From the NCBI RefSeq assembly GCF_022846255.1, contig NZ_AP025682.1: a stretch of DNA of 64,000 bases; one strand, given 5' to 3'. The notes below the pieces were generated by a model. It was not told where the DNA came from, searched no databases, and was given only the letters and a program-made list of their open reading frames with translations. This DNA is from Escherichia coli. Its GTDB lineage: Bacteria; Pseudomonadota; Gammaproteobacteria; Enterobacterales; Enterobacteriaceae. Positions 35,134 through 35,457 of this stretch are shown in pieces (position 1 is the stretch's first letter; every line of letters starts with the position of its first letter). The position numbers were made by a program, and so were the translations under genes.

Positions 35134-35189
35134 AAGACGAAGGCCCCGACCGATATTTCTATCAACCGAGGCCAACGAATGAACACAGC
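35134..35189 (-). ncRNA. sokB: SokB antisense RNA of the hokB/mokB type I toxin locus (position approximate)
   Basis: Placed antisense across the mokB start by analogy with hok/sok loci and remembered K-12 layout; ends not determined from sequence. Confidence 0.3.
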
Positions 35190-35346
35190 AATTCAGATCT
35201 TAGCCTCTTACCCGCCATCCGGCAAGGAGAAAGGCTATGAAGCGCAACCCTCTGGTGGTGTGTCTGCTCATTATCTGCATTACGATTCTGACATTCACAC
35301 TCCTGACCCGACAATCGCTCTACGAACTGCGGTTCCGGGACGGTGA
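35179..35346 (+). CDS. mokB: MokB, overlapping reading frame that couples hokB translation (55 aa)
   Basis: Hand translation from ATG 35179: MNTAIQILASYPPSGKEKGYEAQPSGG... ending TGA at 35344-35346; overlaps hokB out of frame. Confidence 0.7.
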   Translation: MNTAIQILASYPPSGKEKGYEAQPSGGVSAHYLHYDSDIHTPDPTIALRTAVPGR

Positions 35347-35386
35347 TAAGGAGGTTGCTGCGCTCATGGCCTGCACGTCCAGGTAA
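35237..35386 (+). CDS. hokB: HokB type I toxin (49 aa)
   Basis: Hand translation from ATG 35237: MKRNPLVVCLLIICITILTFTLLTRQSLYELRFRDGDKEVAALMACTSR; stop position confirmed against the antisense ORF in the track; GC hairpin GCGCGGGGATTTTCCCCGCGC follows. Confidence 0.85.
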   Translation: MKRNPLVVCLLIICITILTFTLLTRQSLYELRFRDGDKEVAALMACTSR

Positions 35387-35457
35387 GGGCAAGCGCGGGG
35401 ATTTTCCCCGCGCATCTGACTAGCAGATTCATTTTCTCATGGCACCCCTTTTACACT

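Follow-up and report, generated by a model that had tools for sequence, protein, structure and literature searches.

An intact chromosomal type I toxin-antitoxin locus of Escherichia coli, hokB/mokB/sokB, built like the hok/sok system of plasmid R1, is present in the window (the whole stretch of 64,000 nucleotides that was analysed), a reading to which we give a probability of about 0.9. It draws on the ORFs, the family membership of the toxin, synteny, the position of sokB by homology and a predicted two-state fold of the mRNA, and all design elements of a hok/sok system were found: the toxin ORF, the overlapping mok ORF, an antisense gene over the mok start, the conserved leader and the 5′-3′ pairing of the messenger (Table 1). 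Chance is made very improbable by the Rfam match of the leader (E=1e-24), by the fold of the full-length mRNA (z=-7.0) and by that of SokB (z=-4.0). The system is a textbook one and already known, and the exact HokB and MokB proteins of the window are already in public databases; only mildly unusual is a rare HokB allele near a known RNA-editing site.

Sequence comparison supports the locus as a syntenic orthologue of hokB/mokB/sokB of K-12 (b4428, b1420, b4429), with which it shares chromosomal position, ORF lengths, editing motif and gene order, in the window trg - sokB/mokB/hokB - yncP - ydcA - rydC - cybB - gapC. Aligned with the reverse strand of NC_000913.3, the segment 34839-35470 shows 19 SNPs in 631 nt (97.0% identity) and no indel. 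None of the 19 falls in tac, ucb, the mokB Shine-Dalgarno sequence, dcb, the hokB Shine-Dalgarno sequence, the SokB hairpin, the hexamers of the putative sokB promoter or fbi. Six SNPs lie just upstream of +1 and five in the transcribed region: 35185 and 35186 alter nucleotides 4-5 of SokB and give L3T in MokB, 35244 gives H3R in HokB, 35315 gives both T27S in HokB and N46I in MokB, and 35416 gives K6R in YncP and replaces a U.G pair by C-G. The predicted full-length mRNA of the window is about 5 kcal/mol more stable than that of K-12. The original prediction of an antisense-regulated hok/sok locus beside rydC and ydcA is thus supported by the synteny, by the identity and by the presence of every sequence element, and both neighbours do adjoin the locus (Table 1). 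The interval first proposed for it, 35134-35415, lies inside the unit and omits both the 5′ end of the mRNA (about 35091, with tac) and the 3′ fbi element (35435-35447), so that the unit is better given as about 35079-35451.

Table 1. Features of the hokB/mokB/sokB locus and of its surroundings (window coordinates).
Feature	Position	Strand	Description and basis
trg	33198-34838	-	ORF list; 546 aa
Small ORF	34987-35052	+	MIKLANPNDEKFWKTARNFVR (K-12: MAKLANPNDEKFWKTARNFVK); 21 codons, unannotated
Weak hokB -35	35056-35061	+	TTTTCG; by eye
Putative hokB promoter -10	35079-35084	+	TAGGAT, by eye, 6 nt upstream of presumed +1; below scan threshold
Full-length hokB mRNA	35091-35451	+	5′ end by homology; 3′ end approximate, just past fbi
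tac (translational activator)	35091-35102	+	GGGUGCCUGAGA; pairs with 35435-35447 in full-length RNA, with ucb in trimmed RNA
sokB antisense RNA gene	35133-35189	-	57 nt, GCUGUGUUCAUUCGUUGGCCUCGGUUGAUAGAAAUAUCGGUCGGGGCCUUCGUCUUU; transferred from K-12 b4429
ucb (upstream complementary box / anti-SD)	35141-35147	+	AGGCCCC; pairs with mokB SD in full-length RNA, with tac in trimmed RNA
SokB stem-loop	35142-35173	-	14 bp plus tail UUCGUCUUU, terminator-like; terminator scan and fold
mokB Shine-Dalgarno	35168-35171	+	GAGG, 7 nt before ATG; sequence
mokB ORF	35179-35346	+	55 aa (MNTAIQ...), K-12 length; ends inside hokB in another frame
Putative sokB promoter	35197-35225	-	Hexamers TTGCCG (-35; 35220-35225 reverse-complemented) and TAAGAT (-10; 35197-35202 reverse-complemented), 17 nt apart; +1 after a further 7 nt; by eye
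dcb (downstream complementary box)	35203-35206	+	GCCU in conserved UAGCCUCUUACC; pairs with mokB SD in some trimmed folds
hokB Shine-Dalgarno	35224-35229	+	AAGGAG; sequence; overlaps sokB -35 on opposite strand; partly paired in both folds
hokB ORF	35237-35386	+	49 aa, MKRNPLVVCLLIICITILTFTLLTRQSLYELRFRDGDKEVAALMACTSR; ORF list; K-12 length
Hairpin presenting TadA A-to-I motif	35313-35334	+	Fold of +/-25 nt; motif CUACGAA at 35320-35326; Tyr29 A at 35322
yncP	35364-35432	-	22-aa ORF antisense to hokB 3′ end; K-12 b4774 and RefSeq annotation
GC-rich 3′ stem-loop	35393-35413	+	GCGCGGGGA-UUU-UCCCCGCGC; perfect 9 bp; counterpart of last stem-loop of truncated hok mRNA
fbi (fold-back inhibitory)	35435-35447	+	UCUCAUGGCACCC; pairs with 35091-35102
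ydcA	35458-35631	-	56/57 identical to K-12 YdcA
rydC	35802-35865	+	Rfam RF00505, 90.5 bits
cybB	35876-36442	-	ORF of 188 aa from upstream ATG
gapC	36595-37596	+	Intact 333-aa glyceraldehyde-3-phosphate dehydrogenase ORF
MicC small RNA	56263-56383	-	Rfam, 122.7 bits
FnrS small RNA	63342-63459	-	Rfam, 134.8 bits

The two protein frames are intact, as had been predicted: both are present in the ORF list with the lengths of their K-12 counterparts, and HokB can be assigned to the Hok/Gef toxins, for which about 50 aa and an N-terminal transmembrane helix are expected. It matches Pfam PF01848 HOK_GEF (E=5.2e-24, 84 bits, cutoff 22) and the NCBIfam model NF007279 of Hok family toxins (101.7 bits, cutoff 73). 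The upstream frame has the properties of a mok gene, since it starts 58 nt before hokB, overlaps it, carries a Shine-Dalgarno sequence of its own and ends inside it. No Pfam or NCBIfam family is significantly matched by MokB, the match to DUF5431 (E=0.028) being below threshold. MokB differs from that of K-12 by L3T and N46I; its codon 3, which corresponds to SokB nucleotides 4-5, is variable (ACA in the window, CTA in K-12 and ATA in the closest complete genome), and the exact MokB allele was found only on a few draft E. coli contigs, each 100% identical to the window across the interval.

The position of the antisense gene had been left unplaced in the original prediction, with alignment to K-12 as the proposed check. 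When coordinates of b4429 (NC_000913.3, 1492119-1492175) were carried through the gap-free alignment, sokB came to lie at 35133-35189 on the minus strand, and both its position and its strand are now fixed for the window. The complementarity of SokB takes in the Shine-Dalgarno sequence and the opening 11 nt of mokB and stops short of hokB. In its predicted fold (-22.2 kcal/mol, z=-4.04) the first 12 nt at the 5′ end are free, a 14-bp hairpin comes next and a U-rich tail closes the RNA; the terminator scan finds the same hairpin independently of the fold. These features, together with its length and its place over the mok initiation region, are those expected of such an antisense RNA, for which about 55-65 nt are usual. 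The putative sokB promoter, read by eye, agrees with the consensus at 8 of 12 positions and is identical in K-12; it is placed like TTGCCT-17-TACTCT in the plasmid hok locus L012. The promoter scan, run at a threshold of 9/12, reported neither a hokB nor a sokB promoter, and for this reason both promoters are called from position and homology only. Transcription of sokB is made plausible indirectly by the phenotypes of its knock-down in K-12.

A different placement of the antisense RNA could be read from Rfam, where a family called 'sok antitoxin' (RF01794) has a hit on the plus strand at 35091-35242 (105.8 bits, gathering score 59, model positions 1-157 of 157). We regard the chance that this match marks the antisense RNA as negligible. 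The plus strand codes for hokB, and an RNA that matches it from the 5′ end of the leader as far as the hokB start codon cannot be antisense to that gene; moreover, the K-12 annotation has sokB on the opposite strand, only the minus strand shows a terminator-like hairpin followed by a U tail, and the model, at 157 nt, greatly exceeds the annotated 57-nt RNA in length. RF01794 describes the hok leader in sense orientation, and its name is an annotation trap that could put sokB on the wrong strand. Read as the conserved hok leader, the same match places the 5′ end of hokB mRNA at about 35091.

The hok mRNA was described as closed in its full-length form, where tac pairs with fbi and ucb hides the mok Shine-Dalgarno sequence, and as open after 3′ trimming, when tac pairs with ucb and the Shine-Dalgarno sequence becomes accessible to ribosomes or to Sok (PMC9841398). 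The closed state was folded here over 35091-35453 and the open state as the RNA trimmed to just past the GC-rich hairpin. In the full-length fold, for which the MFE of -147.6 kcal/mol (z=-7.04) is only indicative in an RNA of 360 nt, tac and fbi are predicted to form 12 bp (P about 1.0) and ucb to pair with the mokB Shine-Dalgarno sequence (P=1.0). In the trimmed fold tac pairs with ucb at P 0.68 (K-12 sequence: 0.94), the mokB Shine-Dalgarno sequence is free or paired to dcb, and the stretch that the SokB 5′ tail would target goes from 0.32 unpaired in the full-length RNA to 0.80. The published hok switch is reproduced by these folds. Comparison with the plasmid locus L012 points the same way: tac/fbi read GGGUGCC/GGCACCC in the window and GGCGCUU/AAGCGCC in the plasmid, with five of seven pairs changed on both sides and all of them Watson-Crick, in a covariation test that rests on two family members, as L012 is the only one of four plasmid hok loci checked by Rfam that has an intact leader. 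In the other three, IS150 or an integrase gene is found where the leader is expected.

At the 3′ end, the GC-rich hairpin that had been noticed after hokB was found 7 nt 3′ of its stop codon; for plasmid hok, what the corresponding hairpin does is described in PMC9841398. As an intrinsic terminator it was rejected, with no U-run after it and no hit of the plus-strand scan, and the terminator scan gave no plus-strand intrinsic terminator for the hokB mRNA. Just past the predicted end of this mRNA, inside the 3′ end of ydcA, there is a 9-bp inverted repeat, TTAGTGCAT ... ATGCACTAA (35462-35489), which has no T-run on either strand and is therefore no canonical terminator. The hairpin is also spanned by yncP, whose K6R difference from K-12 comes from the SNP at 35416; it has no known part in the toxin-antitoxin mechanism, and a literature search for yncP returned irrelevant matches only.

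The course of events proposed for the window, from transcription and 3′ processing to SokB action, toxicity and editing, is modelled on the literature on R1 hok/sok and on K-12 hokB. The weak promoter would yield a hokB messenger about 360 nt long with its 5′ end near 35091, in which pairing of tac with fbi, together with ucb lying over the mokB ribosome-binding site, would allow neither translation nor SokB binding. Slow 3′ trimming to the GC-rich hairpin would then remove fbi, whereupon tac-ucb pairing would free the ribosome-binding site and the start of mokB. Two outcomes may be envisaged for the open RNA: either constitutively made SokB would bind the start region of mokB through its unpaired 5′ tail and lead to decay of the messenger, or mokB would be translated and hokB likewise by coupling. 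The product, a 49-aa inner-membrane peptide, would depolarise the membrane; HokB in K-12 has been linked to Obg/ppGpp-dependent persistence, and there hokB is regarded as active, with SokB blocking hokB and with Tyr29 edited (PMC12214031, PMC5630033).

The same build is seen in hok/mok/sok of R1 and related IncF plasmids, which have a Hok-family toxin, an overlapping mok frame, an RF01794 leader, tac-fbi pairing, an antisense RNA over the mok start with its -35 overlapping the hok Shine-Dalgarno sequence and, past the stop codon, a GC hairpin; the dcb motif is also present in L012. HokB is 58% identical to the plasmid Hok and has Tyr29/Cys46 where the plasmid toxin has Cys/Tyr (PMC5630033). 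Further differences are the 3′ hairpin, followed by a U-run in plasmid hok but not in hokB, and the biological setting, since hokB is chromosomal and in K-12 tied to persistence, whereas plasmid hok is tied to plasmid maintenance.

One may ask if a locus that looks so complete is still at work. A decayed relic, intact in appearance, with hokB never made in effective amounts and SokB dispensable, was first proposed for the chromosomal hok loci of K-12: as quoted in PMC7232551, Pedersen and Gerdes 1999 called all five of them non-functional through IS elements, point mutation or rearrangement. This call included hokB, and over the transcribed region the window is almost base-for-base identical to K-12; the hexamers of the hokB promoter are also poor. 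The locus is also lost or disrupted in many E. coli genomes. No contiguous copy of 35133-35225 is present in about 657 of 5092 complete genomes, and in other genomes an IS150 element (1443 bp, with an AAC target duplication) interrupts the SokB hairpin at the point that corresponds to 35166/35167, separated by 2 nt from the mokB Shine-Dalgarno sequence. One strain retains a 20-nt scar of the IS150 left end and has lost the sokB 5′ end together with the mokB start. IS150 is also present in a plasmid hok copy, at the equivalent leader position. These insertions echo the IS-inactivated hokA, hokC and hokE loci of K-12, for which Pedersen and Gerdes 1999 is cited. A deletion of trg that ends at the equivalent of 34976 and removes its N-terminus and promoter recurs in several E. 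coli lineages (L006, L009, L007), and in ATCC 25922 the deletion runs into hokB and takes away the N-terminus of HokB.

The relic explanation is nevertheless highly improbable for the window, which bears none of these lesions and has an intact trg (546 aa). The regulatory elements are base-for-base as in K-12, the predicted fold switch is kept, and at least 80% of the 621-nt interval is present in 3964 of 5416 genomes (about 73%), so that the intact state is that of the majority. In K-12, knock-down of sokB is deleterious, more strongly so in poor media (bioRxiv 10.1101/2020.03.04.975888), and later work regards K-12 HokB as an active persistence toxin. The disruption statistics themselves may be read in the opposite direction, for IS150 has disrupted the locus repeatedly and independently, which is easier to understand if an intact copy is costly, i.e., active. 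The reading as an intact locus of the hok/sok type is therefore preferred, and the copy in the window is undisrupted, unlike those with IS150 insertions, IS150 scars or deletions in an appreciable minority of the E. coli genomes. As a separate observation, the IS150 hot spot at the equivalent of 35164-35167 was examined in NZ_CP102947.1 (L005), NZ_CP098910.1 (L008) and CP134899.1 (L010).

The spacer between trg and hokB is dense in SNPs and contains the sole strong plus-strand hit of the promoter scan, a promoter-like sequence at 34932-34961 with 10 of 12 sigma-70 positions. It lies 130 nt upstream of the presumed +1 and was not adopted for hokB. Downstream of it and of an AAGAGAG motif is the small ORF 34987-35052, which has no family match and was rejected as a gene: although open in most strains compared, it shows mostly non-synonymous changes among seven strains (A2I, N6K, T15A, N18D, K21R), and in one strain its ATG is changed to ACG and 9 nt are deleted. 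Upstream of trg, on the minus strand at 34881-34910, a sequence TAAG-15 nt-GCCGATGA was noticed by eye that resembles a sigma-28 (FliA) promoter. On the other side, the 188 aa of cybB against 176 aa (531 nt) in RefSeq probably reflect the choice of start codon, and gapC, a pseudogene in K-12 MG1655, is intact in the window as well as in other strains.

HokB of the window is set apart from that of K-12 by two substitutions, H3R and T27S, with Cys9, Cys14, Cys46 and Tyr29 kept. Arginine at residue 3 had been pointed out in the original prediction for comparison with reference alleles, and it is confirmed (CGC against CAC in K-12, SNP at 35244); the exact 57-mer around this SNP is present in 972 of 5094 genomes and the protein with R3 on at least 1000 contigs, which makes it a common natural allele and no anomaly. 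The second change, T27S, due to the SNP 35315 A>T, had gone unmentioned. Among complete E. coli genomes it is rare (exact 57-mer in 18 of 5407), while the exact HokB protein of the window is found on 658 contigs of a larger collection, and it occurs on at least two haplotypes, that of the window and that of strain 95-3322. At the protein level the change is conservative, because plasmid Hok has serine at the position aligned with it.

The place of this SNP in the messenger deserves more attention. In K-12 the adenosine of the HokB Tyr29 codon, within CUACGAA, is edited by TadA (PMC5630033, PMC12255301, PMC12214031), whose substrates carry YUACGAA with the target A in a stem-loop (PMC12255301, PMC13017025). 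The motif is intact in the window and identical to the tRNA-Arg2 anticodon loop, as in the TadA-edited hokB mRNA, and in the fold of +/-25 nt the bases of the CUACGAA loop are predicted to be unpaired with a probability of at least 0.94; Tyr29 in this loop would be recoded to Cys, as it is by TadA in K-12. SNP 35315 (A>U in the RNA) lies in the stem, 7 nt upstream of the edited A at 35322, where it replaces an A.G mismatch with a U.G pair and extends the predicted stem from 3 bp in K-12 to 6 bp in the window. The local fold of +/-25 nt changes accordingly from -13.3 kcal/mol in K-12 to -16.1 kcal/mol, a predicted gain of 2.8 kcal/mol. It is possible, though rather doubtful, that the T27S allele is edited from Tyr29 to Cys at a level unlike that of the K-12 allele. 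If this were true, a natural structural SNP would tune the potency of the toxin and its disulfide state via editing. As it alters the stem at the most highly edited mRNA site of bacteria, the SNP would be a cheap test case of how stem stability sets the level of TadA editing.
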